The position numbers and the translations under genes were made by a program. Under the pieces are notes generated by a model. The model was given only the letters and a program-made list of their open reading frames with translations. It was not told the DNA's origin and searched no databases. This document shows positions 10,638 through 42,551 of a DNA stretch of 64,000 nt, one piece after another. Within the stretch, counting starts at the first letter, position 1. The number at the start of each line of letters is the position of its first letter. This stretch comes from Deltaproteobacteria bacterium. Lineage in GTDB: Bacteria; Myxococcota_A; Polyangia; Polyangiales; Houyiibacteriaceae. The stretch lies in contig SHLP01000002.1 in the NCBI GenBank assembly GCA_004283055.1, positions 2,753 through 66,752 of the forward strand, in the 5' to 3' direction.

Positions 10638-12554
10638 ATGTGTGGAATCGTTGGAGTTTGGCACCTCGATGGCAGGGCAGTGAACTCGGCCGCGATCGAG
10701 GCCATGCGTGATGCGCTGACCCATCGCGGGCCCGACGACGCAGGGCTGTGGCTCGAGGGCTCCGTAGGCCTCGGTCACCGAAGGCTCTCGATCCTCGACC
10801 TCTCGGAAGCCGGGCGAATGCCGATGGCGAGCCCCGACTCCGCGGTGCAGGCGGTCTTCAACGGAGAGATCTACAACTTTCGCGATCTGCGCGCGGAGCT
10901 CGAAGCCGAGGGTCATCGGTTTTTCAGCGAAACCGACAGCGAGGTGGTGCTTCGGGCCTATGAGCAGTGGGGCGTCGACTGCTTCGACCGGTTCAACGGG
11001 ATGTTCGCAGTGGGTATCTGGGACGGCCGCGCGCAGCGAATGGTTCTGGCTCGGGACCCTGCCGGTCAAAAACCGCTCTACTACGCGTACCGCCCTGGCC
11101 GCTGGCTCCTTTTCGCCTCCACCTTGGCGCCGCTCGTCCGCTATGCGGGGAACGAGCTCGAAATCGACGAAGCAGTCGTCAAGGATTACGTCCGCTTTGG
11201 GTTTCCGCCGGACGGGCGTGCGATGCTCGCTGACGTGCGCAGCCTCCCGCCGGGAAGCTTCAGCCTCACCGAGCGGGGCCGCGAGCCTCGCAACCATCGA
11301 TACTTCGACCTGACCGCATTCGCCGAAGTGACCCCGACGCGGCAAGGCAGTGAGAAAGATCATCTCGAGACGTTTCGCGAGACCATGCGAGAGGCCGTGA
11401 GCGCTCGGCTCGTCGCCGACGTGCCGCTTGGGGCATTCCTCTCCGGAGGGCTCGATTCGAGCTTGGTCGTTGCCTTGATGGCCGAAAAGGAAGCCGATGC
11501 CGTTCAGACCTACACCATCGGCTTCGAGCAGGCCGAGTTCGACGAAAGTCAGTATGCGGCCCGAATCGCATCACACCTCGGGGTGCAGAACACCGTCCGC
11601 GTGCTCCGCGGGCCCGATGTGCTCGCTCAGTTGCCCGACCTCGTGCGCTACTTCGACGAGCCCATGGCGGACTACTCGGTCCTCCCGACCCTCGCGGTGA
11701 GCAAGCTGGCGCGCGAGCACGTGACCGTCGCTCTGACCGGCGACGGCGCCGACGAGGAGCTAGGAGGCTACAAGTACTACCTCGCGCAACGCGCTATCGA
11801 GCCGTACATGCAGCTCGTTCCCGAACCCCTGCGCGCGGCTGTGGCCAAGGCCGCCCGGCTCGTTCCGAACGCAGGCGCCCGCCGAATCGTGGCGAGATCA
11901 GGGGCCAGCGACCCTGCGCTCTTTTTCGGGCTTGGCGGGTTCTATCGCGGCGCCACCGTCGACGCGGTGAATCGTCTGCTCTGCGAGCAAAATGAGGCGC
12001 CGAAGCGCGTCGCCGAGTTCCTGCGGGCACACCCTCTCGGGAACAGCGTCGAAGCAGGCATGCTGTACGACGCAACCCATACCCTTCCCCATGCCTGGCT
12101 CCACAAGGTCGATCGGGCAAGCATGGCAGTTGGTCTCGAGGCACGCTCGCCGTTTCTCGATCGACGTGTCATCGAGCTGGCATTCACGCTTCCACTCGAG
12201 ATGCGGATTCGTGGTCGCCACAAGAAGTACCTCGTCCGTCGTTTGCTTCGCGAGTACCTGCCCGCGGAGCTGGTCGAACGTCCCAAGCAGGGCTTCACGG
12301 CGCCCGTCGCACATTGGCTTCGAAACGAGCTTCGCGAAGAGCTCGAAAACCGGCTGAGCACGGAGATGATCGTGAAGAGAGGTTTCTTCGACCCCAAGCG
12401 AGCACAAATGCTCGTCCAGGAGCACCTCCGGGGCACGCACGACCACGCCCAGCTTCTTTGGGCTCTTCTGGTGCTGGAATGGTGGATCGCGCAGCAGCTC
12501 GAAGGCGACGCTGGGCTGATTGATTACTCGCGCGGCCGCTCCGCGCTACGCTAG
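10638..12554 (+). CDS. asnB: Asparagine synthase (glutamine-hydrolysing) family amidotransferase
   Basis: MCGIVG provides the N-terminal Cys nucleophile, and SGGLDSS is the PP-loop. Length is 638 aa. Confidence 0.9.
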   Translation: MCGIVGVWHLDGRAVNSAAIEAMRDALTHRGPDDAGLWLEGSVGLGHRRLSILDLSEAGRMPMASPDSAVQAVFNGEIYNFRDLRAELEAEGHRFFSETDSEVVLRAYEQWGVDCFDRFNGMFAVGIWDGRAQRMVLARDPAGQKPLYYAYRPGRWLLFASTLAPLVRYAGNELEIDEAVVKDYVRFGFPPDGRAMLADVRSLPPGSFSLTERGREPRNHRYFDLTAFAEVTPTRQGSEKDHLETFRETMREAVSARLVADVPLGAFLSGGLDSSLVVALMAEKEADAVQTYTIGFEQAEFDESQYAARIASHLGVQNTVRVLRGPDVLAQLPDLVRYFDEPMADYSVLPTLAVSKLAREHVTVALTGDGADEELGGYKYYLAQRAIEPYMQLVPEPLRAAVAKAARLVPNAGARRIVARSGASDPALFFGLGGFYRGATVDAVNRLLCEQNEAPKRVAEFLRAHPLGNSVEAGMLYDATHTLPHAWLHKVDRASMAVGLEARSPFLDRRVIELAFTLPLEMRIRGRHKKYLVRRLLREYLPAELVERPKQGFTAPVAHWLRNELREELENRLSTEMIVKRGFFDPKRAQMLVQEHLRGTHDHAQLLWALLVLEWWIAQQLEGDAGLIDYSRGRSALR

Positions 12555-29687: not shown

Positions 29688-30707
29688 CTATGCCCGAAAC
29701 ACAGGCTCCACGCGCTGGGTCCCCGAACCGCTTCGTTTCCAAACGCTGCGAATCGCCGGAAGGCTGACGGACAAGCCGATCATCGTCCAGGGTACCGTGG
29801 CCATGAAATGCCCCGCAATCGCTACGGAGGCCGCCGTGCTCGGATCGATCCCGAGGAGCTCTAGGGCATAGGCGACGGCGACGTGAAAGGTGCCAATGAA
29901 ACCGGGTGAGGAGGGAACCATCGTGCCTACGGAAAGGAAGACCATCACGATGAGTGGGGCGTAGATCGGCAAGTCGAGGCCGAAAGCCCAGAGCCAACAC
30001 TGAATGGTCAGCATCCCGACGAAACGTATGGCGAACGTGAGGGCCAGCGCTTCGGCGACCGCTCTGCTCGACCGCAGCGCGCTCAATCCATCGACGAACC
30101 GCTGCGCCTTCTGGACGAGCCAGGCTTGAATCCTGGGGCTGAACGGACGCGAGACGAAGACGACGACCCCGGGAAACCTGTGCGGATTGGCTGCGAACCA
30201 CGCGACCGCGAGGAGCGCGGCGAGGATGAGACCAATCAGCCATGCAAGACGACGGTCGCCCGAGAGATCGACGGCCAGAAGCGGCACGACCAGAGCAAAC
30301 AAGACCAGGAACGAGATGAGGTCGAGCAAACGTTCGAGGCCGACGACCGCGACGGTGGACCCTCTAGAGATTTTGCCGGCCCGCGCAAGAAGGTCGATTC
30401 GAACGAGCTCTCCGAGCCGAAACGGGAAGACATTGTTGGTGACGTACCCGCCCAAAATCGCAGTGAAGCACTCGATGAATCGATAGCGTCGGAGCGGCCG
30501 TAGAAATACCTTGCTCCGCAGCGCGCCCAGCGAGAGGACAGCACCTTTGGTCAGCAAGCAAGCCGACAGGATCCAGAGGTTGACGGAAGCTAGGGTCGGA
30601 CCGATCTCACTGAGATCGACGCGGCGTAAGAAGTAAACGGCGAGAATCGCGGATAGAACGAAGCCCGCGGTCATCAGGACGCGTTCCTTGGTCAGGCTTG
30701 GCCGCAT
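29688..30707 (-). CDS. UPF0104 / lysylphosphatidylglycerol-synthase-TM-region-like ('flippase-like') membrane protein
   Basis: Polytopic, 339 aa. AILGGYVTNNVFPFRLGELVRIDLLA is a pattern typical of this family, which is often paired with GT2 enzymes. Confidence 0.6.
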   Translation of the reverse strand: MRPSLTKERVLMTAGFVLSAILAVYFLRRVDLSEIGPTLASVNLWILSACLLTKGAVLSLGALRSKVFLRPLRRYRFIECFTAILGGYVTNNVFPFRLGELVRIDLLARAGKISRGSTVAVVGLERLLDLISFLVLFALVVPLLAVDLSGDRRLAWLIGLILAALLAVAWFAANPHRFPGVVVFVSRPFSPRIQAWLVQKAQRFVDGLSALRSSRAVAEALALTFAIRFVGMLTIQCWLWAFGLDLPIYAPLIVMVFLSVGTMVPSSPGFIGTFHVAVAYALELLGIDPSTAASVAIAGHFMATVPWTMIGLSVSLPAIRSVWKRSGSGTQRVEPVFRA

Positions 30708-30709
30708 CG

Positions 30710-32263
30710 CTACTCTCCGGCGAGCTCCAGACGCTGCTCGAAGAACTCGTAGAGGTCGGGGAGCGGCGCGCCCTCGTTGCCGAGTATTCCTGCGGAGATC
30801 GAGGCCAAGGAGCTTCCCAAGTACATTCCTACGGGAAGGGGCTCGCCCGCGATCTGGGCGAGGCTGGCGCCGGTCAAAAAGACGTCTCCAGAGCCCACGG
30901 CGTCGACCTCGTGGATCTCGAGCGCCGGAAGATAGTCGGTCCTCAAACGGTCACCGTCGCCCCGAGGAGGCCGGAAACAAAGCGACCCTCGCCGACCCAT
31001 GGTCACGATGAGACCCTTGGCGCCGCTGGCAGCGTAATACCGGCTCGCCAGGTTGGAGATGCCGCTCTCCGCATCCGCCAGGGCAAACCTCAGCTCCTCC
31101 TCGGTCGGCGTCGCGAGCTGCGGCTTTTGGAACTTGAGGATGTTGGCCTGCCCATTCGTGCTCACGTCGGCGAAGTACGGTTTGCCACATCGTTCCGCGA
31201 GCACCGGAATCGCGTTGGCAAGCGTCGGGCCGAACAACCCGTACCCGAAATCGGTCACGATCAGCCCGTCGTGATCGTCGAGCTGCGCCTCGAGCAGAGA
31301 GGTGAGCTCAGCGCTGGTTTCGATGGGGATCGGCGCTGGGTTCCCTCGGTCTACTTTGAAGACCTTCTTGTCCCCGACCAGGTAGCGGGTCTTGGTGTAC
31401 GCTCTGCGCCCCGGCGCCGGCAGGTTGCGCACTTCGACCCCCGAGCGCTCGAGGCTGCCTCGGATTCGACGGAACGACTCGTCCTCTTCACAGCAGGTGA
31501 TGAAGGTGGGCTTTGCGCCGAGGACGGCCGCTTGCCGCGCGATCAGCCCTGCACCGCCGATGAACCACTCTTCGCTGATGGGTTTTACCGAGACGATCGG
31601 GCTCTCGGACGCGACGCGCGCGCCCTCGCAGTGCGAATACTGATCGAGGATGGCATCCCCGAGCACCAAGACCCGGAGATCGGAAAAGGCAGCGATCGTG
31701 TTCTTCAACCGGGCGGAACTGATGGCATTGACCTGGCAGAAACGCTGGATCTTCTGCTGTTCCATGTCGAGGCTGTTGCCCTTGCGTCGGCCGATCTCGG
31801 TCGACGAAAAGATGACGTCTCCGGAACCGAGGACCACGCGTCCGCCGAAGGCCTCGACGATTTTCTTCTCTTTGGCAAAGCGTGGATCGTTTTTGGACTC
31901 GTACTCCCGACCTTTGACGTAGATGTCGGGTTGGATCGCCTCGAGGACAGGGCCTGCCCATTCATCTTCGCTGAGCGCCACGTAGTCTACGCAAGCAAGC
32001 TCGGCCAGGTTGTCGAGTCGGAGGTCTTCCGGGATGTAGGGTCGCTCGTACCCCTTCATCACGACGTCGTCTGCGCTCACGGTCACGACCAAGACGTCGC
32101 CGAGGCTACGTGCCATGCGCAGATAGCGAATGTGGCCCGGATGAACGATGTCAAAGCAGCCATGACACTGAACCACCGTTTTACCCGCCTTGCGAAGCTG
32201 CGCCCTCTCGGCCTGCAGACTCTCGACGGAATGGATCTTCTTGTCAGCTTCCGCGCTACGCAT
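30710..32263 (-). CDS. Bifunctional nucleotidyltransferase + PfkB sugar(-phosphate) kinase, HldE/RfaE-like but with inverted domain order
   Basis: The N-terminus has VVQCHGCFDIVHPGHIRYL (HxGH cytidylyltransferase fold). The C-terminal ~350 aa are ribokinase-like, with VLVLGDAILDQY and DAVGSGDVF. Confidence 0.75.
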   Translation of the reverse strand: MRSAEADKKIHSVESLQAERAQLRKAGKTVVQCHGCFDIVHPGHIRYLRMARSLGDVLVVTVSADDVVMKGYERPYIPEDLRLDNLAELACVDYVALSEDEWAGPVLEAIQPDIYVKGREYESKNDPRFAKEKKIVEAFGGRVVLGSGDVIFSSTEIGRRKGNSLDMEQQKIQRFCQVNAISSARLKNTIAAFSDLRVLVLGDAILDQYSHCEGARVASESPIVSVKPISEEWFIGGAGLIARQAAVLGAKPTFITCCEEDESFRRIRGSLERSGVEVRNLPAPGRRAYTKTRYLVGDKKVFKVDRGNPAPIPIETSAELTSLLEAQLDDHDGLIVTDFGYGLFGPTLANAIPVLAERCGKPYFADVSTNGQANILKFQKPQLATPTEEELRFALADAESGISNLASRYYAASGAKGLIVTMGRRGSLCFRPPRGDGDRLRTDYLPALEIHEVDAVGSGDVFLTGASLAQIAGEPLPVGMYLGSSLASISAGILGNEGAPLPDLYEFFEQRLELAGE

Positions 32264-33356
32264 GGCTGCGACTCCATTGAATCAAGGCGTCGATCAGCGC
32301 ATCCCGGTCGGAGGCTTCCAACTCGGGTGTCACCGGCAGGCTTACGATACGCCTAACCAGCGCCTCGGTATGTGGCAGTGCTGGAGCAGTCATCCCTGCG
32401 AACGCACGCTGCTGGTGAATCGCAATCGGATAGTGCACTTTGGCATCGAAACCCTTCGAGGCCAGATGTGCGATCAATGCATCGCGTTTGTCGTGACGAA
32501 TGACGAAGGCGCTGTAGGCAGGCTCTGAGCCTTCAGTGATGCGCGTCAGCTCGAAAAACGGTCGCAGTGCCGCTTGATATGCCGCCGCATGATCGCGGCG
32601 CCTCGCGATCCATTCGTCGAGATGTGGAAGCTTCACGAGAAGAATCGCCGCTTGGAGCGTGTCGAGCCGCGCGTTCTCACTCGGTACGTCAACGCGATCA
32701 CGATCGCGGTGGCCGAGGGACCTGAGCCGCCTGAGAAGAGCAGCCTGCTCTCGGTCGCCGGTCGTGATGAATCCCGCATCGCCGCACGCCGCCAAGGCCT
32801 TCAGCGGGTGGAGCGAAAAGCAGCCCAAGCCAAACGACCCGACGCTACGCCCATGCAGCGTCGAACCGATCGCCTGTGCGCAATCCTCGATGAGATGAAG
32901 CCCGTGTGCCCTGCAGAGCGCCTCAATGGGGGCCATGTTGCAGGGAACGCCGCCGAGGTGAACGGGAATCACGGCCTTGGTTCGTGGCGAAATTGCCGCG
33001 GCGAGCAGCTCCGGGTCCATCAGACCCGTCGCCGGATCGACGTCGATGAAAACCGGCGTCGCCCCAAGCAAGCAAACCGAGCTTGCGGTAGCCACGTACG
33101 AATGAGAGACGGTGATGACTTCGTCCCCCGGGCCGATCTCGAGCGCCCGCATGACCAACGTGAGCGCAGACGTGCCAGAGCCGACGCCGACCACTTCCTG
33201 TACGGCGAGGCGTTGCGCCAATCTCTCCTCGAGCTCGTGCACTTCCGGGCCGTTGATGAACTGGCCGTGCCCCAGCACACGATCGACGGCCTCGAGAATG
33301 TGAGGCCGCAGGGCCTGGTTCTGTTTGACCAGGTTCACGTAGGGGACGGAAGTCAT
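32256..33356 (-). CDS. DegT/DnrJ/EryC1/StrS-family PLP-dependent sugar aminotransferase
   Basis: The start is ATG 33356 (ATGA overlap with the SDR gene). It has MTSVPYVNLVKQNQALRPHILEAV, GVGSGTSALTL, and the SLHPLK Lys region. Confidence 0.85.
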   Translation of the reverse strand: MTSVPYVNLVKQNQALRPHILEAVDRVLGHGQFINGPEVHELEERLAQRLAVQEVVGVGSGTSALTLVMRALEIGPGDEVITVSHSYVATASSVCLLGATPVFIDVDPATGLMDPELLAAAISPRTKAVIPVHLGGVPCNMAPIEALCRAHGLHLIEDCAQAIGSTLHGRSVGSFGLGCFSLHPLKALAACGDAGFITTGDREQAALLRRLRSLGHRDRDRVDVPSENARLDTLQAAILLVKLPHLDEWIARRRDHAAAYQAALRPFFELTRITEGSEPAYSAFVIRHDKRDALIAHLASKGFDAKVHYPIAIHQQRAFAGMTAPALPHTEALVRRIVSLPVTPELEASDRDALIDALIQWSRSHA

Positions 33357-34378
33357 GAAACGAGCTTCGCAGCCGACCTCCAAAGCTTCGGCCGGGCCTT
33401 CATCCATGCAACGTTGCGATAGACGTCCGAGCCGCTGTCGGAGACTCGACCCGAACCATAGGCTTCGCGCAGCTCACGGACGGCCGTGACCAAATCGTGC
33501 CGAGTCTCGAAGCCGAGGTCTCTGCGCGCCCGGTCGGCTGAGAGGTGATACGAACGCGGATCATTGGTTGGGACTGTGTCGATCGGTAGCGACGCGTCGA
33601 GCTCATCTCGGATCATTTCCGCCAAGGACATGACCGACGCGTTCTCCCGGCTCACGTTGAAGGCCCGGGCGCTGATCTTTTCGGCAGGCGCCGTGAGCAG
33701 CATGCGGTAGAACGCCGTCAGGTCCAGGATGTGAACGTTGGGGCGCATTTGGGAGCCCCCAAAAACCCGAATCCGCCGGTCCGTCAGGGCCTGGTCCGTC
33801 AGCAAGTTGATGGTCAGGTCGAGCCGCAGGCGGGGTGAGAAGCCACACACGGTGGCAGACCGCACCGAGACCCCGACAAACGAGTCGTCGACCAGGCTCT
33901 CGAGGATACGCTCTCCCTCCGCCTTGCACTTGGCGTAGATGGTGATTGGGTCGAGGGAAAGCTCCTCGGTTACGTTTTCGTCGTCTTTGATTCCGTACAC
34001 GCTTGCGGAAGAGGCGTAGAGGAAGCGTTTTACGCCGTGCCTCTTCGACGCTCGCATCAGATGTTCGACCGCGTGAAGATTGACCGATTCAGTGACGCCG
34101 TGATCGAGCTCCGAGCTCGGGTCGTTCGAAATGGCAGCAAGGTGAATCACGGCATCGAAGCCGCCCTCGGCGAGCGCGGCATCGACCGCATCGAAATCCC
34201 GGATGTCGCCTTGAATCTTTGCGCAGCGCTCGTGGACGATGGGGTCCGAGCTAGGGTTCGTTCCATAGAAAAAGGCGTCAAAAACGGTGACCTGGTGTCC
34301 CTCATCCAAGAGCTCCGGGACGAGGACCGCGCCGATGTACCCGGCTCCCCCGGTCACGAGTAATTTCTGGTTCGTCAT
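33353..34378 (-). CDS. NAD-dependent sugar epimerase/dehydratase (extended SDR)
   Basis: The start is ATG 34378. It has LLVTGGAGYIGAVL (GxxGxxG) and YAKCK (YxxxK). The upstream 75 track codons are a run-on. Confidence 0.8.
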   Translation of the reverse strand: MTNQKLLVTGGAGYIGAVLVPELLDEGHQVTVFDAFFYGTNPSSDPIVHERCAKIQGDIRDFDAVDAALAEGGFDAVIHLAAISNDPSSELDHGVTESVNLHAVEHLMRASKRHGVKRFLYASSASVYGIKDDENVTEELSLDPITIYAKCKAEGERILESLVDDSFVGVSVRSATVCGFSPRLRLDLTINLLTDQALTDRRIRVFGGSQMRPNVHILDLTAFYRMLLTAPAEKISARAFNVSRENASVMSLAEMIRDELDASLPIDTVPTNDPRSYHLSADRARRDLGFETRHDLVTAVRELREAYGSGRVSDSGSDVYRNVAWMKARPKLWRSAAKLVS

Positions 34379-34428
34379 TTCCGCCTCTCGTCGTCGATAC
34401 GATATCCTAATCCCCGGATGAATGAAAA

Positions 34429-35091
34429 ATGACGACATCCGCTGTGCTCTTCGACATGGACGGTGTGCTGGTGGACTCGGCGTCCCTACATGTGCGCGCT
34501 TACGAACGCATATTCCACGACGCAGGAATCGAATTTCCCGCGGCGGCCCGGGACGCGGTTCGCGAGGGAAAGCGCCGAGCCGAGGTGATCGAAATCGCCG
34601 CACCCGACGCGAGCTCAGCCGTCGGGCAAGCGCTCTTCGACGCGAAACCAGCCGCGGTCGCCCAACTGCTTCGCGACGATGCCAATGTGAGCATGCCGGG
34701 CGCGACTCGGCTCGTGCGTGCTCTTGCGGATCGGGGAATCCCGATGGGGGTCGTCACAAACAGCGTCGATCCCGATCTCTGGTTGGCCGCTGCGGAAATC
34801 TTGGATGTGATGGACGTCGTGATCACGGGCAACGAGGTTTCGTCGACGAAGCCGGCCCCGGAGGGCTACCTACTGGCTGCGGAACGATTGAGAGTCCATC
34901 CAACGGCTTGCATCGTTTTCGAGGACTCGCGCGACGGTTGGTTGGCTGCAAGCCGCGCTGGCATGCGCGTGCTGGTCCTCGCATCGGCGCGTCCTGCTTG
35001 GGCCGATGAGAGCGTCGAGCTCGTGCCCGGCATGGATAGCTCGGGGGTGCTAGCCCTCTGTCTCCCGGGCACGACAGGGGAGGCCTCGTGA
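34429..35091 (+). CDS. HAD-superfamily hydrolase (subfamily IA, beta-phosphoglucomutase-like phosphatase)
   Basis: AVLFDMDGVLVDS is motif I. VVTNS and FEDSRDG are motifs II-IV. Confidence 0.8.
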   Translation: MTTSAVLFDMDGVLVDSASLHVRAYERIFHDAGIEFPAAARDAVREGKRRAEVIEIAAPDASSAVGQALFDAKPAAVAQLLRDDANVSMPGATRLVRALADRGIPMGVVTNSVDPDLWLAAAEILDVMDVVITGNEVSSTKPAPEGYLLAAERLRVHPTACIVFEDSRDGWLAASRAGMRVLVLASARPAWADESVELVPGMDSSGVLALCLPGTTGEAS

Positions 35092-36071
35092 GAGTCCATC
35101 GTTTTTTCGAGGCGGTGTATCGAGACAACCAGCTGCGCCGCGCGCCGAATCGACGCCGCCTTGCTCGTGACTTCGCCCTCTACGTGAGGAACCGCGCCCT
35201 CGAACCGATCGATGCGATGCTTCGAGCGAAGCACGGTCGAACAGACCTGCCTGTCGTCTTCATCGTCGGCGCCCCTCGATCCGGAACGACGGTGCTGTAC
35301 CAGCTCATTGCGGAGTACGTGGATGTGGGGTTCGTCAACAATCGAATGGCTCGCTACTTCGCTGCGCCGGTCCTGGGCGCCATGCTTCACGGTCGCACTG
35401 GAGGTGGACACCAGCTTGCTCTCTCCTCGGAGCACGGCCGAACGGCGGGAGACCACTCGCCCCATGAGTTCTCGTGGTTCTGGCACTACCACGGCGACTT
35501 CCGCCTCTACGACGACCTGAGCGACGAGGAGCTTGCGAGCATGGATGGGCAGCCAATCAAACGAGCGCTGGAGGGCTTGGCCGGCTACTTCGAGCGCCCG
35601 CTGGTGGTCAAGAACATCAACTTCGTCTCGTATCAAATAACTTGGCTCAAACGATTGATCCCCAGGGCGAAGTTCATTTGGATTCAGCGTGACGATCGGT
35701 ACACCGCGCAGTCGATCATGCGCGTTCGTGAAGAGGAATACGGCGACAGGAAGGTTTGGTGGTCGATACGGCCGAGAGACGCGGCCTCGTGGCACGACCG
35801 GTCGCCCGTCGAGCAGGTCAGCCATCAAATTCGTGATCTGAGTCGCGCGATCGAGACCGCGTTTGAGGCGCTTCCCGGAGAGGATCGTTTGACGCTCGAA
35901 TACGAGAGCTTGATGAGAGAGCCCTCGAGGACCCTGCGGCGGGTTGCCCGATTCATGGGCGCTGATCTTGCCGACGAGGCAGGGCTCGAGGCCCTCACGC
36001 TAGAGACTCGGAACCATAGAACGGTTGACGACGAGACTTGGACCCAGATCCAGACGGCGCTTGCACCCTAA
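35088..36071 (+). CDS. Sulfotransferase-family protein (PAPS-dependent type)
   Basis: The GTG start overlaps the HAD stop (GTGA). VVFIVGAPRSGTTVLYQLI matches the 5'-phosphosulfate-binding loop. Confidence 0.65.
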   Translation: MRVHRFFEAVYRDNQLRRAPNRRRLARDFALYVRNRALEPIDAMLRAKHGRTDLPVVFIVGAPRSGTTVLYQLIAEYVDVGFVNNRMARYFAAPVLGAMLHGRTGGGHQLALSSEHGRTAGDHSPHEFSWFWHYHGDFRLYDDLSDEELASMDGQPIKRALEGLAGYFERPLVVKNINFVSYQITWLKRLIPRAKFIWIQRDDRYTAQSIMRVREEEYGDRKVWWSIRPRDAASWHDRSPVEQVSHQIRDLSRAIETAFEALPGEDRLTLEYESLMREPSRTLRRVARFMGADLADEAGLEALTLETRNHRTVDDETWTQIQTALAP

Positions 36072-37094
36072 ATGACCTCTTTCGAAACCACAGAAGACGC
36101 GAAAACCTGGTCGGCCTGGCTAGCAGAGGCAGGCATCGACGACGTCTACTACTCCTTTCAGTACCTAGAGACCTGGGCGCACGAGGAGCTCGGCCGCTCG
36201 ATTGGGATCCGATACGAATCGCCGAGAGGACGAATTCTTTATCCACTCGTCTTGGTTCCGCTCGATTCCCTGCCCGGAGGGTCGGGCCTCGTTGAAGCGC
36301 GCACTCCCTATGATTTCGGCGGACCCTGGGCTGATGGCCCCGATCTCCGAGCGCTGCACGGCGAGCTCCGGGATGTTCTGGTTGATTGGCTGCAAGGCCG
36401 CGGCGTGGTCTCGGAGTTTGCGCGGATCCACCCGCTGCGCGAGGGCGGGCAGCCCGCCGACGCAGCAGTCCACGCGGAAAACCTCATCGTTGACGTGACC
36501 GGTCCGTACGACGAGCTGTTCTCCTCTCAGCATCGAAGACACCGCCGCGCGGTGCGCGCCTTCCATCGGCACAATCACGAATTGCATTGGATCAGCGACA
36601 TCTCGGACCGCGACGCTACTGCGTTCACAGAGCTCTACGCCAGGACGATGGCCCGAGTCGCGGCAGGCACGGACTATCGATTTTCGGACACGACGCTGTC
36701 CGCTCTGATGGCGCTCGACGAAATGAGCCTGGTGCAAGCGACGAGCGAGACCAAACCCTTGGGCGCGGCGCTCTTTCTGCGTTCTGGCGACGACCTCTTT
36801 TATTACCTGGGCGCGTCGGCGGACGATCGCCCCGCAGGTACAAACAACGCAATTTTCGACGCCGCGATCCGTAACGCGCAGTCGCGGGGCATGCGAACGC
36901 TTCATCTCGGCGGCGGCAGCGAGTCCCTCCGGGCCTTCAAGTCTCAGATTGCAACTGGGACGGTTCCATACAGCGTACTGCGCCGAATCATCGACGAACC
37001 CCGGTATACGGCGCTTTGCCGGGCGTGCGGAGCCTCTGGCTCGACCTATTTCCCGGCGTTCCGCCCGGAGCTCATCGAGAGACGCCAGAGGTGA
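36072..37094 (+). CDS. FemAB / BioF2-like GNAT-fold acyl(aminoacyl)transferase
   Basis: The ATG directly abuts the upstream stop. LFYYLGASADD and MRTLHLGGGSESLRAFKSQ resemble the FemAB/Acetyltransf_6 families. This is recognised from memory. Confidence 0.55.
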   Translation: MTSFETTEDAKTWSAWLAEAGIDDVYYSFQYLETWAHEELGRSIGIRYESPRGRILYPLVLVPLDSLPGGSGLVEARTPYDFGGPWADGPDLRALHGELRDVLVDWLQGRGVVSEFARIHPLREGGQPADAAVHAENLIVDVTGPYDELFSSQHRRHRRAVRAFHRHNHELHWISDISDRDATAFTELYARTMARVAAGTDYRFSDTTLSALMALDEMSLVQATSETKPLGAALFLRSGDDLFYYLGASADDRPAGTNNAIFDAAIRNAQSRGMRTLHLGGGSESLRAFKSQIATGTVPYSVLRRIIDEPRYTALCRACGASGSTYFPAFRPELIERRQR

Positions 37095-38623
37095 CCGTAT
37101 CCGTGCTTCGCATCGTGCCGCTGGTCTTAGCGGCCGTCGTCGGGCTCCTCGTCGTCGACGCAGGCTTCGTCTACGATGACCCCTCCGCACTGGTCGAGAA
37201 TCCCGTCGTCAACGGCTCGACTCCAATCTGGGAAGCGTTCGTACGTGATTTCTGGGGACGCCCTGCGACGCACGGCTTCACTTCGTGGCGCCCGCTGATG
37301 CCGATCGTCTGGGCTCTGATCTGGCGGATCTGGCCCTCCGATCCCCTGCCGTTTCACCTCCTGAGCGCATCCCTCCACGTCTTCGCCGTGTGGATGAGCA
37401 TGCGCTTCGTCTATCGGCTCCGCCCTTCGTACGCCTATTCGTCTGCGGTCGGCGCGTTATTTGCGCTGCATCCGCTCAACACCGAAGCCGTCAGCGCGAT
37501 CGTTTCCCAGGCCGATTTGCTGTCGTTCGCGCTAGCGATCGGCGCCTGCACGGTCGCCCTCGGGCCAGCAAGCCTCCGCGGCGGGTCTTATTGTGCCCTG
37601 CTGCTCGTACTGGCCACACTTGTGAAGGAATCCGCGATCGTTTTCGCGCCACTGGCGGCGCTTCTGTTTTTGCTCGAGAGCGGTGACAAGAAGCTTCCGT
37701 TACTCGCCACAGTTCCCGTGCTCGTCGTGACCGTTGTAGTGATCGGTGTTCAGCTGAGCCTGCCGAGGGCCCCCGGGGTCACCATGATCACAAGCAACTT
37801 GGCACACCATGCGGACGGCGGACTGCGTCTACTACTCGGACTTCACAACATCGGGCGGTCCCTGTGGATGTCCGTCTGGCCATGGCCGATCGCACCCAAT
37901 CATGGGTACGCCGTCACTGAGCTACAGTTGGGCGTCCTCGGTCCCCATGCGGCGCTCGGGGCTGTCCTGCTGGTCGTCGGAACCATCGGCGGAGTTTGGG
38001 CCGTAAGTCACCGTCGCAGAGCATGGGTTGCCGCCCTCTCGCTTCTCTACGCGCCAGCTCTTCTGCAGTCCCATTGGTTCGTTCCGCTGATTACCGACCT
38101 TGCCGAACGACTGCTCTATCCGGCGACGCTCGGAATCGCCATGATCGCAGGCATCTGTATCTTCGATCGGCTGCAGCGGCCCGTGGCGCGTACCCTGCTG
38201 GTCTCTTCGCTCGGACTCGCGGCTCTGATCGGCAGCTTGTCGGCAAGACGCGCATGGGTCGATGAGGACTCGCTCTGGTTATACTCCGTCCGCGTAGAGC
38301 CGAAAGCCACGCTCCATCAACACAACGCGTCCAACACGTTCTTTCGTGCTGACGACCTGGATCGCGGCGCTTACCACCGCTTGATCGATGTTTACTTGCT
38401 GAATCGATTTCCCGCCCCGGTGCAATGGGAACAGATCGAGTCGACACGCTCGCTTTCCCCGCTCGAGCGCTTCGTCGAGCTCCCCGCGATTCTGGAGCCA
38501 GACGACCCCTGCGCGCTCGTTCGGCTCTTCACGAAGGAGGCGAGGCAGTATAAGCCGCTCTACGAATACGTCGTGGAGCATTGGGGCCGGCGATACCCTG
38601 CCTGCGGACGCTGGGCGCCCTGA
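37091..38623 (+). CDS. GT-C-fold membrane glycosyltransferase candidate (PMT_2/TMTC-like)
   Basis: The GTG start overlaps the upstream stop (GTGA). The first loop, DAGFVYDDPSALVENPVV, and the WRPL motif resemble polyprenyl-P-sugar-dependent GT-C enzymes. It has many TM segments. Confidence 0.5.
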   Translation: MTVSVLRIVPLVLAAVVGLLVVDAGFVYDDPSALVENPVVNGSTPIWEAFVRDFWGRPATHGFTSWRPLMPIVWALIWRIWPSDPLPFHLLSASLHVFAVWMSMRFVYRLRPSYAYSSAVGALFALHPLNTEAVSAIVSQADLLSFALAIGACTVALGPASLRGGSYCALLLVLATLVKESAIVFAPLAALLFLLESGDKKLPLLATVPVLVVTVVVIGVQLSLPRAPGVTMITSNLAHHADGGLRLLLGLHNIGRSLWMSVWPWPIAPNHGYAVTELQLGVLGPHAALGAVLLVVGTIGGVWAVSHRRRAWVAALSLLYAPALLQSHWFVPLITDLAERLLYPATLGIAMIAGICIFDRLQRPVARTLLVSSLGLAALIGSLSARRAWVDEDSLWLYSVRVEPKATLHQHNASNTFFRADDLDRGAYHRLIDVYLLNRFPAPVQWEQIESTRSLSPLERFVELPAILEPDDPCALVRLFTKEARQYKPLYEYVVEHWGRRYPACGRWAP

Positions 38624-38634
38624 TTCTTCGAGCG

Positions 38635-39459
38635 TCAGTCTCGGGTTGGAGGCGGGAAAAAGCTTTCGGGCTGTTCGCCGCGTTCCTGCTCTTCGTGGTA
38701 CCGCCGCACCATCTTTTCTCTGTACTGGCCGACATCTTTGGCGCCCTTGTACGTTTCGCGAACCGCGCGAAGCACGGCCATCGGCTTGATTGCGTGGGAG
38801 TCGCCAATCGCTCGGCCGCGTGAGATGTAGGGCGCTTCGGCAATTCGGAGGTCGGGCCGACGCAGCTGCGCCTTCGCCAGGAGCTCCGCTACGTAGGCGT
38901 GCCCACCAGATTCGACGTGAATGCCCTTGAATGCACTTGCTCGATAGAGCTTCATCCCATTGAGCGAGCGCCAGCGAAAACCGTAAAGCGTTTTGGTCAA
39001 CTTCAGGAAACCCGTGGACGCGATTCGGCGGGACAGCTTTCTCACGACAGGATTGTACAAGTACCCCAAGACGACGTCGTGACCGCGGCGAGCCGCCAAG
39101 AGATTGTCAATCGACTCTGCGAACACGAATTCGCTGTCACCTGGGAATACCGTAACCCAGGTGTCCTCCTCGATGGTCTCGTACGCCTCGGTCACGCAGC
39201 GGCCGAGGCCGCGATTGACGTCGTGCGCGAGGAGCCTGCAGCGACTGTCTTCGGTGCAGAGCTCTTGCATCACCGCCCGCGTGCCATCGGTCGAGCCGTC
39301 GTCGATCATCACGACTTCGACTCCGACCGCGATCCTGTCGGCGTGTTGGAGCACCTCCTTGACGGTGCGCCGCACCAGGTCTTCTTCGTTCAAGCATGGA
39401 ACGAGAACGCAGAGCTTTTCTCCTCGCTCGCTCGTTTTTGCGGTGCGGGTTTCGGACAT
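38635..39459 (-). CDS. Family-2 glycosyltransferase, DPM1/ArnC-like (polyprenyl-phosphate sugar synthase type)
   Basis: The start is ATG 39459, with a GAGAGGAG SD. It has LCVLVPCLNEEDLV and VVMIDDGSTDGT. Confidence 0.8.
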   Translation of the reverse strand: MSETRTAKTSERGEKLCVLVPCLNEEDLVRRTVKEVLQHADRIAVGVEVVMIDDGSTDGTRAVMQELCTEDSRCRLLAHDVNRGLGRCVTEAYETIEEDTWVTVFPGDSEFVFAESIDNLLAARRGHDVVLGYLYNPVVRKLSRRIASTGFLKLTKTLYGFRWRSLNGMKLYRASAFKGIHVESGGHAYVAELLAKAQLRRPDLRIAEAPYISRGRAIGDSHAIKPMAVLRAVRETYKGAKDVGQYREKMVRRYHEEQERGEQPESFFPPPTRD

Positions 39460-39537
39460 CGCTCCTCTCAAGTTGCCCTGTTGGATCCAAAACGTCAATC
39501 TGTTGACCAGCCGTCTCAGCGCGTAGGAAAATGAGAA

Positions 39538-41403
39538 ATGCGTTCACGTAAACGCGTACGGCGTCTTCAGATCACGGGCCTACTCTTGGCGGGCATCGTC
39601 TCTCTTTGGATGTTTCGCGAGGTCGGGAATCACCATTTGTCGTCCTTTAATCTCGGGCTTGGGACGACGGTGTTCATCAGTCGGGGGTATGCGTTTTTTC
39701 TCCTCTTCTGGACCGTCTTTGGATCGCTTGCGGCGATCTTCTTCGGCGGCGCGTTCGCCTTAGCCAGCGATTCAGACTGGGCCTCGCGTCTCGTCGACCG
39801 GCTGCGAGGGACATCAGACCGCAGCGTCATCATTGCGATGAGCCTTCTTGGCCTCTGCATTCCACTGCTCATCCACTGGCGCCTCCTTTTGGATGCGGAC
39901 ATTGCCGACGACGAGTCGGCATATCGGTTCATGGCGCAGCTGCTGGCGAGCGGGCGACTCTACGCCGACTCACCGCCAATGAAGCTCTTCTTCGACCGTG
40001 CGTTCATGATCAACGACGGCAAGTTCTACGCGCAGTATTTCGTGGGATGGCCGGCCCTCCTCGCACCCGGCGTTGCGCTCGGGGTACCCTGGTTGATGAA
40101 CCCGATCTACTCGGCGCTCACAGTCCCACCCATCTTTCTCACGCTTCGGCAACTAGGTGGACGACGCTGTGCGGCCACGGGCGCCATGATCTTCCTATCG
40201 GCGCCTCTCGTGCAGTTCGGCGCCGCGACGCAGCTCTCGCACACGTCCTGCATCTTTGCGCTTGCCTGGGCGACGTTCTTCGCGGTCCGCATCTACACCG
40301 GGGACGAGAGGCTTTGGTTGCACGCTGCACTTGCAACATGCTTCTCGATGGCCTTTTTCATCCGCCCGAGCTCGGCCCTGGGGATCGGGCTCCCGCTCCT
40401 GGCGATCTGGTTGATCTCAGCTGCGTCGATGGAAGGAAAGGCACGGTGGAAGGCGATGGCTGTGTTTGCTGCTCCAGCGCTGGCGTTCGCCGTAGCGTTC
40501 CTTCTGGTCAACCTGGCGCAGAACGGAAGCTTCACCGCCGTGTCCTATCAACGGGCGATCAGCTACGCCAGGGAGAACGGCTTCCGCTTCGCGGCGTGGA
40601 ACTGGTTTCCGAAAGACAGGACGTTCGCGATGGAGCTAGGGCCGATCGGCCTAGCCGCCGCGCAGACGGGTGTCTCGCTGACGCGTTTAAACTACGCCCT
40701 CTTCGGCTGGCCTCTGGCCTTCGTCTTCCTGCCATTCGCCGGTTGGCGCAGCTACCGAAGTTGGGTCCCATGGACGATGTTGATCTGCTTCGGGGTGACC
40801 CACTTCCACATGCGCAACGGCGGTATCGATACATTTGGGCCTGTACACTACCTCGAAACCGCTCTCCCCTTGGTTCTCCTGACCGCTCTTGGGGTCACGC
40901 GGCTCACGTCATCGTTGAGCTCGGTTCCCTCGAAGGGCCTGGTCGGAGGGCTGTCGTCGAGAGCACCTCTCGCGCTCTGTCTCGGCCTGATCACCGCTTC
41001 AGCTCTCGGCTACGTACCGGTGCGCGCCATGGCTCTGCACGAAGTCGGCTCGATCACGGGCCTGGCGGCGCGCACGGCCGAGGCGGAGCTCCAGGGGCCG
41101 TCGGTCATCTTCGTGCAGCGGCCCCTCGTTCCTAGGCACTGCAATGGCACCCACCACTTCAACTTCTGGCGGCCCAACAACGACCCGGATCTGCAGAATC
41201 GGATTCTTTGGGTGAATCACATCACGCTCGATCACGATAGCAAGCTGATGGAGCTCTACCCCGATCGGGAAGCGTTCGTCATGGTCTGGTCGCAGCAGTG
41301 CACGCCGCGTTTCCTTCCGCTCTCTGGGCTCGACGAGGCAAGAGTCCCCCCGGGAGCCATCGGCGGCTCTGGCGAGCTCCCTTCGGTGGAGGAGATGCGG
41401 TGA
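39538..41403 (+). CDS. GT-C-fold membrane glycosyltransferase candidate (ArnT/PMT family-39/83-like)
   Basis: 621 aa and polytopic. The early loop DADIADDESAYRFMAQLL resembles the DE/DD catalytic loop of the ArnT/PMT_2 families. Confidence 0.55.
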   Translation: MRSRKRVRRLQITGLLLAGIVSLWMFREVGNHHLSSFNLGLGTTVFISRGYAFFLLFWTVFGSLAAIFFGGAFALASDSDWASRLVDRLRGTSDRSVIIAMSLLGLCIPLLIHWRLLLDADIADDESAYRFMAQLLASGRLYADSPPMKLFFDRAFMINDGKFYAQYFVGWPALLAPGVALGVPWLMNPIYSALTVPPIFLTLRQLGGRRCAATGAMIFLSAPLVQFGAATQLSHTSCIFALAWATFFAVRIYTGDERLWLHAALATCFSMAFFIRPSSALGIGLPLLAIWLISAASMEGKARWKAMAVFAAPALAFAVAFLLVNLAQNGSFTAVSYQRAISYARENGFRFAAWNWFPKDRTFAMELGPIGLAAAQTGVSLTRLNYALFGWPLAFVFLPFAGWRSYRSWVPWTMLICFGVTHFHMRNGGIDTFGPVHYLETALPLVLLTALGVTRLTSSLSSVPSKGLVGGLSSRAPLALCLGLITASALGYVPVRAMALHEVGSITGLAARTAEAELQGPSVIFVQRPLVPRHCNGTHHFNFWRPNNDPDLQNRILWVNHITLDHDSKLMELYPDREAFVMVWSQQCTPRFLPLSGLDEARVPPGAIGGSGELPSVEEMR

Positions 41404-41419
41404 GTCCCGGGGCTGAACT

Positions 41420-42505
41420 ATGCTTGTTGGAATGGGAACGGGCGAGATGAGCACCAGCGGATTGCTGATCGAGCGACCGATCGTACTCCTGGCTTCGGAG
41501 CGAAGTGGAGGGAACCTACTCCGTGCCATCGTCGGAAGCCATTCCCAGATCGTTGCGCCAAGTCCGGTGCACTTCTTGATCAACGTCGATCCACTTCTTC
41601 CGCTCTATGGAGACCTCTCGGACGATGCTAACTTCCGCCAGGCCTGCGAAGACGTGTCCCGCCTGCTTCGGTACCAAATTGCTGGTCACGGCGAACCGCC
41701 GAAACCCGACGCGCTCTTCGAAAACGCTCGGGAGCGAAGCCTGGTTGGATTGATGGACGTCGCGTTTCACCTGCTCATGGAAAAAAGCGGCGCCACGCGC
41801 CTGCTCTTGAAAGAGAACGAGGCGTTCCGATACGCCCATCGCCTGGCCAACGCGTATCCGAAGATGCGTTTTCTGTACTTGGTGCGCGACGGACGCGACG
41901 CGGCCTTGTCGTGGCTCAAGTCTCCGAACCACTTTGGCGGCGTTTCGCACATTGCACGAACCTGGCGCGACGAGCAGAGAGCGTGTCTCTCCCTTTTGTG
42001 TGACCCCAGCCTCTCCGATCGAATCCTAGTGGTTCACTACGAAGACCTCGTCTCGACGCCTGACGAAATCGTCGAATCGCTGTGCCAATTCATTGATGTG
42101 GACTTCGAAGATTCCATGCTCGAGTTTCACGGCCGCGCCGAAATTCGTGAGCAGTCTGCAGGGGTTCGAAACTGGGAAAACCTGTCGAGACCGATCATGG
42201 AGCAGAACTTCAACAAGCACCAAGCGGAGCTCGGTTGGTGGCGTACCCAGACGTTCAATCAGATTGCGCGGCGAGAGCTCACGTCGCTCGGCTATGACGT
42301 CCCGGACACAAGCGGAATCCATCGCCTCGGAGGCCAGGTGATGAGTGCCTCCAAAGAGGGCCTCGCCTTGGCCTCGAAAGCTGCCCGCGGGCGTCTTCCA
42401 AAACCGGTCGAGGTCCTAGCGCGCGGAAAACGTCGTCGCAATTTCGGAAAAATTACCTCAGAGCTCGAAGCTCGCCAGCGTCCACGCTGGCCCCGCAAAC
42501 ACTGA
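41420..42505 (+). CDS. Second sulfotransferase-family protein
   Basis: IVLLASERSGGNLLRAIVGSH is a PAPS-loop-like segment, and LYLVRDGRDAALS is a 3'-phosphate-binding-like segment. The G+C content is visibly lower. Confidence 0.5.
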   Translation: MLVGMGTGEMSTSGLLIERPIVLLASERSGGNLLRAIVGSHSQIVAPSPVHFLINVDPLLPLYGDLSDDANFRQACEDVSRLLRYQIAGHGEPPKPDALFENARERSLVGLMDVAFHLLMEKSGATRLLLKENEAFRYAHRLANAYPKMRFLYLVRDGRDAALSWLKSPNHFGGVSHIARTWRDEQRACLSLLCDPSLSDRILVVHYEDLVSTPDEIVESLCQFIDVDFEDSMLEFHGRAEIREQSAGVRNWENLSRPIMEQNFNKHQAELGWWRTQTFNQIARRELTSLGYDVPDTSGIHRLGGQVMSASKEGLALASKAARGRLPKPVEVLARGKRRRNFGKITSELEARQRPRWPRKH

Positions 42506-42551
42506 CGACTCGCTCTCCGGGGCGTCGACGAGCTTGCCGGCTGGATACGGG

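Follow-up and report, generated by a model that had tools for sequence, protein, structure and literature searches.

What does an enzyme of the Fem type do when its gene lies between a sulfotransferase and a membrane glycosyltransferase? The question is raised by four consecutive genes in a 64,000-nucleotide stretch (the window) of contig SHLP01000002.1, which derives from an uncultured marine Myxococcota genus. These genes encode a HAD-IA hydrolase (HAD), a sulfotransferase (ST1), a FemX-type double-GNAT transferase (Fem) and a membrane glycosyltransferase of the GT-C fold (GTC1), and they form part of a locus of about 13 kb (29688–42505). On balance, we favour the view that the locus encodes an Arn-like pathway on polyprenyl phosphate in which a 4-amino sugar undergoes sulfation and tRNA-dependent N-aminoacylation. 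A preliminary description of the four genes had assigned them to the same families, and all four assignments hold: HAD, sulfotransferase, Fem-like (PF13480 plus FemX fold) and GT-C (by fold, Z up to 19.4). The description had also taken the four genes for a single module. Here our result differs, since the conserved unit is the sulfotransferase gene followed by the Fem gene, usually beside a family 2 glycosyltransferase gene (GT2).

Fem belongs to a tight family of 340-amino-acid (aa) proteins from Myxococcota metagenomes, within a superfamily of about 3,000 representatives at E <1e-3. The sole Pfam model above threshold is PF13480 (4.5e-9, 37 bits versus a cut-off of 22). The AlphaFold2 model of the protein (predicted local distance difference test, pLDDT, 94.6; predicted template modelling score, pTM, 0.91) consists of two tandem GNAT domains. 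Its best Foldseek match was FemX of Weissella viridescens (template modelling score, TM, 0.70, E 2.5e-14), followed by Sba18/Sbb17 and then by FemX and FemA of Staphylococcus aureus (down to E 7e-11). The synthase domains of MprF (E ~1e-9) and acyl-CoA-dependent tandem GNATs ranked lower; Fem-type or aminoacyl-tRNA-dependent enzymes reached TM 0.65–0.71, versus 0.4–0.5 for the acyl-CoA tandem GNATs. When a profile of 20 Fem sequences was compared with all PDB sequences, only Fem-type or aminoacyl-tRNA-dependent enzymes rose above noise, namely Weissella FemX (5e-5), S. aureus FemX and the Sba18/Sbb17 peptide synthases.

The resemblance to FemX extends to the catalytic lysine. In the HMMER profile alignment, F289-K290 of Fem fell on F304-K305 of Weissella FemX and Y244 on Y254, and K290, F289 and Y244 do not vary across 20 members of the Fem family with identities as low as 31%. 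FemX relies on Lys305 for catalysis, and its second GNAT domain bears a basic helix that has been proposed to hold the tRNA acceptor stem (PMC12945691). Helix 155–166 of Fem opens domain 2 and is strongly basic, with H157, R158, R159 and R162 invariant or nearly so. It aligns with a Lys/Arg-rich stretch of the Weissella and S. aureus FemX proteins and, judged by alignment and model, may be the counterpart of the proposed tRNA-stem-binding helix. At positions 253–258 (RPAGTN), where GNATs carry the R/Q-x-x-G-x-G/A pyrophosphate loop, this form is not conserved across the Fem family.

A coiled-coil arm had been suggested as the feature that would tell a tRNA-using enzyme from a plain GNAT. The Fem model has no long helical insertion and hence none of the arm that FemA, FemB and FemX of S. 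aureus possess. As a test of tRNA use this result is not decisive, because Weissella FemX (335 aa) uses Ala-tRNA yet has no coiled coil; we therefore rejected the idea that the coiled coil decides the matter. An unrelated GNAT with no conserved linkage, the outcome that would have spoken against the preliminary description, is not what we found: Fem is a FemX-type double GNAT with the catalytic lysine kept and with conserved neighbours. We predict that it is an aminoacyl-tRNA-dependent N-aminoacyl transferase acting on an amino sugar.

We analysed these neighbours through genome and metagenome scans plus tblastn with eleven locus proteins. Besides the four genes and GT2, the locus encodes a second membrane protein (GTC2), a second sulfotransferase (ST2), an SDR epimerase/dehydratase, a DegT aminotransferase, an HldE-like bifunctional enzyme and a PF03706 membrane protein. 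The exact order HAD-ST1-Fem-GTC1 was found only where Fem is at least 66% identical, that is, in one shallow Myxococcota clade, where synteny extends over all 11 genes of the locus and the junction types are preserved. No GT-C gene stands beside Fem in L004, L005, L007, L028, L029, L060 and L065, and in all of these GT2 adjoins Fem or lies near it. Since the order is clade-limited, the GT-C gene is often missing beside Fem and the ST1-Fem pair is missing in one genome of the genus (G408), the four genes do not co-evolve as a single module.

The pairing of ST1 with Fem reaches much further. Both genes were adjacent in every orthologous locus where both were found, down to 36% identity. At identities of at least 40%, ST1 lies directly upstream of Fem. 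Apart from a 1-kb gap in L063 the two are immediate neighbours; their order is reversed in L007, and L029 has no ST1 match. In the loci checked (L001–L006), the ST1-Fem junctions are 0 nt or short overlaps. HAD-ST1-Fem is located beside GT2, with no GT-C gene, in L004, L044 and L060, while L007 (36% identity) reads GT2-Fem-ST1. More of the locus recurs in L005 (PF03706, ST1-Fem, GT2, GTC2, SDR, DegT and HldE-like genes), in L028 (GT2-ST1-Fem alongside SDR-DegT-HldE-PF03706) and in L065, where HAD-GT2-ST1-Fem-DegT-PF03706-SDR are encoded on one strand. PF03706 co-occurs with Fem in these three loci and in L029. Among distant Fem paralogues (24–33% identity), DegT lies within 3–7 kb in 8 of 12 loci, and in L066 DegT genes flank Fem on both sides. 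The linkage of Fem to a sulfotransferase, GT2, the DegT aminotransferase and the PF03706 flippase-like gene is thus conserved.

Within the genus, the locus is always flanked by egtD/egtB (ergothioneine) on one side and MscS/HlyD on the other, and its content varies between these borders. Of the 41 genomes searched, 6 yielded Fem and 15 a member of the GTC1 family. Every Fem-positive genome carries a GTC1 gene (one broken, one on another contig), and 9 genomes are GTC1-positive but Fem-less. PF03706, HldE-like, DegT, SDR, HAD, GT2 and GTC2 genes form the core in the variant loci examined, and ST1, Fem, GTC1 and ST2 are variable. Fem is accessory, since it is found in only 6 of the 41 genomes. 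In G408 HAD abuts GTC1 directly, with the ST1-Fem pair missing between them, so the pair behaves as an insertable cassette. We conclude that ST1-Fem is a swappable tailoring cassette, an accessory element that was inserted between HAD and the TMTC-like GTC1. HAD, which is divergent from SDR even in Fem-less genomes of the genus, belongs with the genus-wide sugar-activation core and not with this cassette. The four genes are one stretch of a patchwork, probably a variable surface-glycan or glycolipid modification locus.

What the cassette does is suggested by its replacements. Sister loci with a PylC-like ATP-grasp or a WbqC gene in the same variable segment carry no Fem gene. PylC-type ligases of the ATP-grasp family join the carboxylate of an amino acid to an amine through an amide bond. 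WbqC occurs in operons with a dedicated paralogue of prolyl-tRNA synthetase and a tRNA (PMC10404621). This non-orthologous substitution is the strongest contextual argument, and we infer from it that Fem joins an amino acid to the sugar amine as an amide.

The gene orders of the sister loci are as follows. In G408 (L042 14850–18819), an ST1-like gene (46% identity) precedes an ornithine/diaminopimelate-decarboxylase-like gene (pyridoxal phosphate type) and then the PylC-like ATP-grasp ligase gene. In G417 (L045 10681–13280), the WbqC-family gene is situated directly upstream of an ST1-like gene, between it and GT2. In G130 (L046 4523–8180), the WbqC-family gene is one gene away from the ST1-like gene and beside GT2.

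The partner of Fem is a clear member of PF13469 (3.9e-20, 73.5 bits versus a cut-off of 27). Across 13 orthologues and paralogues, P63-R64-G66-T68 of the PRSGTT loop, H126, R201 and S209 are invariant, the invariant residues also include PHEF, and from these intact motifs we take ST1 to be a Sulfotransfer_3 enzyme of the type that uses 3'-phosphoadenosine 5'-phosphosulfate (PAPS). The genome encodes adenylyl sulfate (APS) kinase, so PAPS can be made. When ST1 was compared with PDB sequences, the match was confined to about 29 residues, the PAPS loop of tyrosylprotein sulfotransferases, which is uninformative on the acceptor. Fusions of ST1 and Fem were sought among longer ST1-related proteins and none were found, which is weak evidence. 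ST2 also matches PF13469 (5.5e-22) and has only a short weak stretch in common with ST1, the two being unrelated in detail.

If Fem acylates an amine, the DegT protein would be the source of it. It scored best on the ArnB model (222.7 versus a cut-off of 631), with PseC- and DesI-type models also under their equivalog cut-offs, and only 3 full DegT genes are present in the 4.3 Mb genome of the window. HAD is well over the cut-off for PF00702 (4e-26), matches PF13419 (2e-22) and has all four motifs I–IV (DMDGVLVDS, VVTNS, STKP, EDSRDG). It stays below the cut-offs of TIGR02009 (139.8 bits versus 153.35) and of the beta-phosphoglucomutase equivalog (93.5 versus 189.4). Its nearest solved relatives are beta-phosphoglucomutases and sugar phosphatases, and by its sequence it is probably a phosphatase or a mutase, beta-phosphoglucomutase-like; next to the HldE-like enzyme, it could be a GmhB-like phosphatase or a beta-specific mutase. 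The HldE-like enzyme comprises PF01467 (residues 34–124) and PF00294 (residues 198–491), and scores below the cut-offs of TIGR02198 and TIGR02199. Its nucleotidyltransferase domain precedes the PfkB kinase domain, the reverse of canonical HldE, and its gene is kept together with DegT and SDR in the locus variants examined.

GT2 matches PF00535 (1.2e-16) and has no transmembrane segment visible in its sequence. Against NCBIfam, it gave weak matches of the ArnC, PpgS and DPM type (ArnC model 24.4 versus a cut-off of 529), and no PDB sequence matched at 1e-5. We consider it a candidate polyprenyl-phosphate sugar synthase that forms a conserved core with ST1 and Fem, and the PF03706 protein a candidate flippase for the lipid-linked product.

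GTC1 had no match in Pfam, with PF08409, PF13231 and TPR all unmatched. Its remote sequence relatives are TPR/TMTC_DUF1736/PMT_2 proteins (E 9e-17 to 1e-7). With Foldseek alone, no match to the AlphaFold2 model (pLDDT 91.7) was significant (best E 2.4e-3). A VIA search of 48,161 chains found that the best 20 were all GT-C enzymes, aligned over residues 1–403 with Z from 19.4 to 9.3 (next Z 7.0); AglB reached 19.4, PglB 18.3, Pmt1/2 18.2 and ArnT 16.9. D29-D30, just past the first transmembrane helix (TM1, residues 3–19), form a first-loop acidic motif that is invariant in 27 GTC1 homologues. The C-terminus is a helical domain of about 100 aa without TPR matches. On the strength of its modelled fold, GTC1 is a GT-C protein, TMTC/PMT-like. 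A protein acceptor is possible because its nearest sequence relatives are protein O-mannosyltransferases. Its donor would be a lipid-phosphate-linked sugar, to which the GT2 and PF03706 genes of the locus point.

GTC2 likewise had no Pfam match, and profile comparison with the GTC1 family detected no similarity between the two (probability 1.6%). In its Atlas look-alike clusters, which provide a lead only, 16–59% of members carry PF13231 (PMT_2), and GTC2 is probably a PMT_2/ArnT-like GT-C protein. It is present in Fem-less loci of the genus. In these variants, GTC2 is flanked by open reading frames (ORFs) of 232–235 aa that are absent around GTC2 in the window: L042 11418–12125 and 14018–14725, L045 7312–8019 and 9909–10616, and L046 8300–8998 and 10880–11587. 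The two from L042 that were scanned are S-adenosylmethionine-dependent methyltransferases (Methyltransf_11). These flanking ORFs are a further layer of strain-variable tailoring.

Taken in order, the encoded functions suggest the following pathway. The HldE-like kinase/nucleotidyltransferase and HAD would make a nucleoside-diphosphate (NDP) sugar, which SDR and DegT would turn into an NDP-4-amino sugar. Most likely, Fem would then link an amino acid from aminoacyl-tRNA to the sugar amine as an amide, and it could do so at the cytoplasmic face on a sugar bound to either a nucleotide or a lipid. ST1 (and ST2) would sulfate the same intermediate from PAPS, at a hydroxyl of the sugar or at the newly attached aminoacyl group. 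GT2 would load the sugar onto polyprenyl phosphate, the PF03706 protein would flip the lipid-linked sugar, and GTC1 and/or GTC2 would transfer it in the periplasm. Aminoacylation, sulfation and GT2 loading may occur in a different relative order. Shown directly are the gene identities, the folds, the match of catalytic residues, the pattern of linkage and the distribution of the genes among genomes; it is the protein families that suggest these steps and their order, aminoacyl-tRNA as the donor, an amino sugar as the acceptor and the final acceptor. The gene content of the locus fits the earlier proposal that an amino sugar is decorated in the cytoplasm before periplasmic transfer.

Several points weigh against this pathway. 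Fem has no PF02388 (FemAB) match, although relatives at about 30% identity do match that model, and it passes the Pfam threshold only for the generic PF13480; PF04339 (FemAB_like) scored 23.5 bits, below its cut-off of 27. No NCBIfam family matched at E up to 0.01, TIGR03019 included, and Fem is therefore not a TIGR03019 member. Neither a tRNA gene nor an aminoacyl-tRNA synthetase gene was found within the window. GT2 does not clearly resemble any polyprenyl-phosphate glycosyltransferase of proven function. Both the Arn-like route and the functions given to HAD and ST1 are assigned at the level of families. Glycan loci are generally DegT-rich, which inflates the association of Fem with DegT, and WbqC is an uncharacterised family whose presence in sister loci is only suggestive. 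Furthermore, the present data, sequences and models, do not distinguish aminoacyl-tRNA from acyl-CoA as the putative donor.

Alternatively, Fem might be an acyl-CoA-dependent tandem-GNAT N-acyltransferase that places an acetyl or other acyl group on the amino sugar, its likeness to Fem enzymes being one of shared fold only. The generic GNAT model as best Pfam match would agree with this, as would VipF, the clavulanate tandem GNAT and MAB_4324 among the structural matches (E 1e-9 to 1e-7); moreover, N-acetylation of 4-amino sugars is common and the locus has no other evident N-acyltransferase. However, Fem-type and aminoacyl-tRNA-dependent enzymes match clearly better by structure and are the only ones found by the sequence profile, the catalytic lysine and FK motif of FemX are invariant, and the pyrophosphate-loop form of GNATs is not conserved. 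The sister loci, too, carry an amino-acid-type ATP-grasp ligase in the same segment, not an acetyltransferase. We regard an acyl-CoA donor as possible but rather unlikely.

Aminoacyl-tRNA would also be the donor if Fem and PF03706 were a split system similar to MprF, in which Fem aminoacylates the head group of a membrane lipid or glycolipid, PF03706 flips the product and the sugar genes build the glycolipid. PF03706 is indeed the MprF flippase-type domain and accompanies Fem in the four loci named above, Fem has a weak match to PF09924 (LPG_synthase_C; 19.6 bits versus a cut-off of 27.5, 5e-4), and MprF synthase domains are among its structural matches. But FemX and Sba18 match better than MprF, and the repeated linkage to DegT points to the amine of an amino sugar as acceptor. 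PF03706 is also a genus-wide core gene that does not depend on Fem, because it is present in the Fem-less loci examined. Such a system is improbable in our view, and it would overlap with the pathway proposed here if its acceptor were a polyprenyl-linked amino sugar. That Fem is a true peptidoglycan-branching enzyme of the FemX/MurM kind, located in a glycan locus by chance, we consider very hard to believe: its closest solved structures are peptidoglycan Fem enzymes, but it lacks a PF02388 match, always has a sulfotransferase gene as neighbour with DegT close by, and occurs in just 6 of the 41 genus genomes. In addition, the peptidoglycan of Gram-negative Myxococcota has direct cross-links.

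The coordinates of the locus are collected in Table 1. The junctions of the four genes had been described as GTGA, 0 nt and GTGA, which is exactly borne out, and the same types recur in orthologous loci. The TGA stop of HAD lies inside the GTGA at 35088–35091 that is the ST1 start site; the TAA stop of ST1 (36069–36071) is followed without a gap by the Fem ATG at 36072 (TAA/ATG); and the Fem stop lies inside the GTGA at 37091–37094, where the GTG start of GTC1 sits. This GTG start agrees with gene calls in other assemblies, where many orthologues are likewise 510 aa long. The junctions indicate an operon. Stoichiometric co-expression, which had been read from them, does not follow: in a rough ORF call, a possible start lies −4 to +2 nt from the upstream stop in 10 of the 28 co-directional pairs in the window, and 7 of these 10 are outside the four-gene stretch. 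Tight junctions are therefore the local norm and do not by themselves establish stoichiometry, and we rejected the idea that three consecutive overlapping junctions are exceptional. Promoter and terminator scans of 34200–39700 gave no more sites than shuffled sequence and thus do not mark the limits of the operon. The divergent gaps are very short, 50 bp between SDR and HAD (34379–34428) and about 39 bp between GT2 and GTC2 (39499–39537), and therefore the promoters of the opposing operons must overlap or sit inside coding sequence.

Table 1. Genes of the probable surface-glycan or glycolipid modification locus, with positions in the window.
Product	Position	Strand	Length	Annotation
PF03706 (MprF flippase-type, UPF0104) membrane protein	29688..30707	-		PF03706 2.8e-41
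HldE/RfaE-like bifunctional enzyme	30710..32263	-		PF01467 + PF00294
DegT/DnrJ/EryC1 sugar aminotransferase	32256..33407	-		PF01041 1e-102
SDR sugar-nucleotide epimerase/dehydratase	33353..34378	-		PF01370 2e-40; ATG at 34378
HAD-IA hydrolase (HAD)	34429..35091	+	220 aa	
Sulfotransferase ST1	35088..36071	+	327 aa	
FemX-type double-GNAT transferase (Fem)	36072..37094	+	340 aa	
GT-C fold membrane glycosyltransferase GTC1	37091..38623	+	510 aa	
Soluble GT2	38635..39498	-		start TTG 39498 or ATG 39459
Membrane protein GTC2	39538..41403	+	621 aa	
Second sulfotransferase ST2	41420..42505	+	361 aa	

Further observations concern the relatives of these genes. Among distant relatives of Fem, we found tandem Fem-Fem fusions of 626–1060 aa (P0157, P0163, P0169 and P0220), which would fit the stepwise addition of two residues, and an ATP-grasp-Fem fusion protein also exists (P0180). 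A second PF13480 (Acetyltransf_6) gene with a slightly better Pfam score than Fem lies in the same genome but outside the window (G000 C161:18319–18717, minus strand), in an open frame of 422 aa. The Fem gene of L006 (9973–10922) reads as two overlapping frames, through either a frameshift or an assembly error. GTC1 shows signs of decay, being in pieces in L002/G155 (11020–12239) and reduced to N- and C-terminal remnants in G417 (L045 6802–7291). Between ST2 and the MscS gene, L001 (16433–17511) and its equivalents in L002 and L003 hold about 1 kb of extra sequence with a short fragment resembling the SDR of the locus (about 29% identity to residues 1–150 of that protein); the counterpart in the window is shrunk to 46 bp (42506–42551).

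How does the locus compare with known systems? A Fem homologue between a sulfotransferase and a periplasmic-acting GT-C enzyme had been called unusual; for Fem-like genes in glycan loci as such, precedents exist. TIGR03019 (FemAB-related, PEP-CTERM/exosortase-associated) is a named family annotated in exopolysaccharide loci (PMC3684757). VimA is a FemAB-related protein of the Wbp/Vim linking-sugar pathway in Porphyromonas gingivalis and Tannerella forsythia, where swapping the vimA gene replaces Ser by Gly as the N-linked amino acid on the linking sugar of P. gingivalis; this is genetic evidence, with the donor unproven (PMC7468200). As proposed here for Fem, VimA acts in a surface-glycan pathway that includes sugar aminotransferase genes and, as the genetic evidence indicates, attaches an amino acid to an amino sugar through its amine. 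VimA matches TIGR03019 whereas Fem matches no NCBIfam model. The amine used in the Vim pathway sits on a 2,3-diamino uronic acid of A-type lipopolysaccharide (A-LPS) and is uncovered by the deacetylase VimE, whereas here it would come directly from DegT. The sulfotransferase partner, and delivery apparently via polyprenyl phosphate and GT-C enzymes, are further differences.

Biochemical precedent comes from Orf11, which in vitro uses Gly-tRNA to glycylate an amino-sugar intermediate on its amino group (PMC12945691). Orf11, Sba18 and Sbb17 (PDB 9wqy, 9wqw, 9wqx) have the FemX-like double-GNAT fold and are top structural and profile matches of Fem, and the Sba18/Sbb17 structures were solved with the amino-sugar compound streptothrisamine. 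In contrast to Fem, they are proteins of about 285–312 aa with about 16% identity to it, belong to streptothricin-type antibiotic pathways of Streptomyces and have no sulfotransferase or lipid-carrier context. FemX of W. viridescens (PDB 1ne9, 4ii9) resembles Fem in size (335 versus 340 aa), in the missing coiled-coil arm, in the catalytic F-K motif and in the equivalent of Tyr254, and it acts on a nucleotide-linked sugar substrate. It differs in that it serves peptidoglycan synthesis, with the Lys side chain of UDP-MurNAc-pentapeptide as acceptor, in its 16–18% identity to Fem and in PF02388, which Fem does not match.

The route as a whole shares with the Arn system (ArnB/ArnC/ArnT), with mycobacterial PpgS/Rv3779 and with similar pathways that modify amino sugars on polyprenyl phosphate the logic of aminotransferase, GT2, flipping and periplasmic GT-C; ArnB is the best model for the DegT protein and ArnT a strong fold match of GTC1. 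However, all equivalog cut-offs are missed, no formyltransferase or deformylase is among the annotated locus genes, activation would proceed through the HldE-like enzyme and HAD, and the locus has two GT-C proteins, two sulfotransferases and a Fem-type enzyme. GTC1 is also nearer by sequence to the TMTC/PMT protein O-mannosyltransferases. The locus is therefore Arn-like in logic but not a member of the Arn system. Our search of the literature yielded no report of a sulfotransferase as the partner of a Fem-like enzyme. What appears to be new is the constant sulfotransferase partner, the Arn-like setting with lipid carrier and GT-C, and the alternation with ATP-grasp and WbqC within one genus. 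We speculate, with considerable doubt, that the product of ST1-Fem is a chemically undescribed group, an amide-linked, sulfated amino acid (O-sulfo Ser/Thr/Tyr or N-sulfo aminoacyl) on a 4-amino sugar carried by a nucleotide or polyprenyl. A TMTC-like GT-C enzyme would deliver it to an envelope protein or lipid, and with Fem, ATP-grasp and WbqC as interchangeable routes, strains of one genus would differ at the same position.

Bacterial surface glycans often carry amino acids in amide linkage to their amino sugars, but the enzymes responsible are mostly unproven. Of the precedents named above, VimA has genetic support only, and the Orf11-type enzymes belong to antibiotic pathways. The locus described here is a compact, testable case, with a FemX-type enzyme that has the catalytic lysine and DegT as the proposed amine source. 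A single genus provides the natural controls, namely loci that lack the cassette and loci with ATP-grasp or WbqC in the same segment. The constant pairing with a sulfotransferase suggests a combined aminoacyl and sulfate decoration in marine bacteria. If the donor is aminoacyl-tRNA, tRNA-dependent non-ribosomal chemistry would extend to strain-variable envelope glycans that are delivered via lipid carriers.

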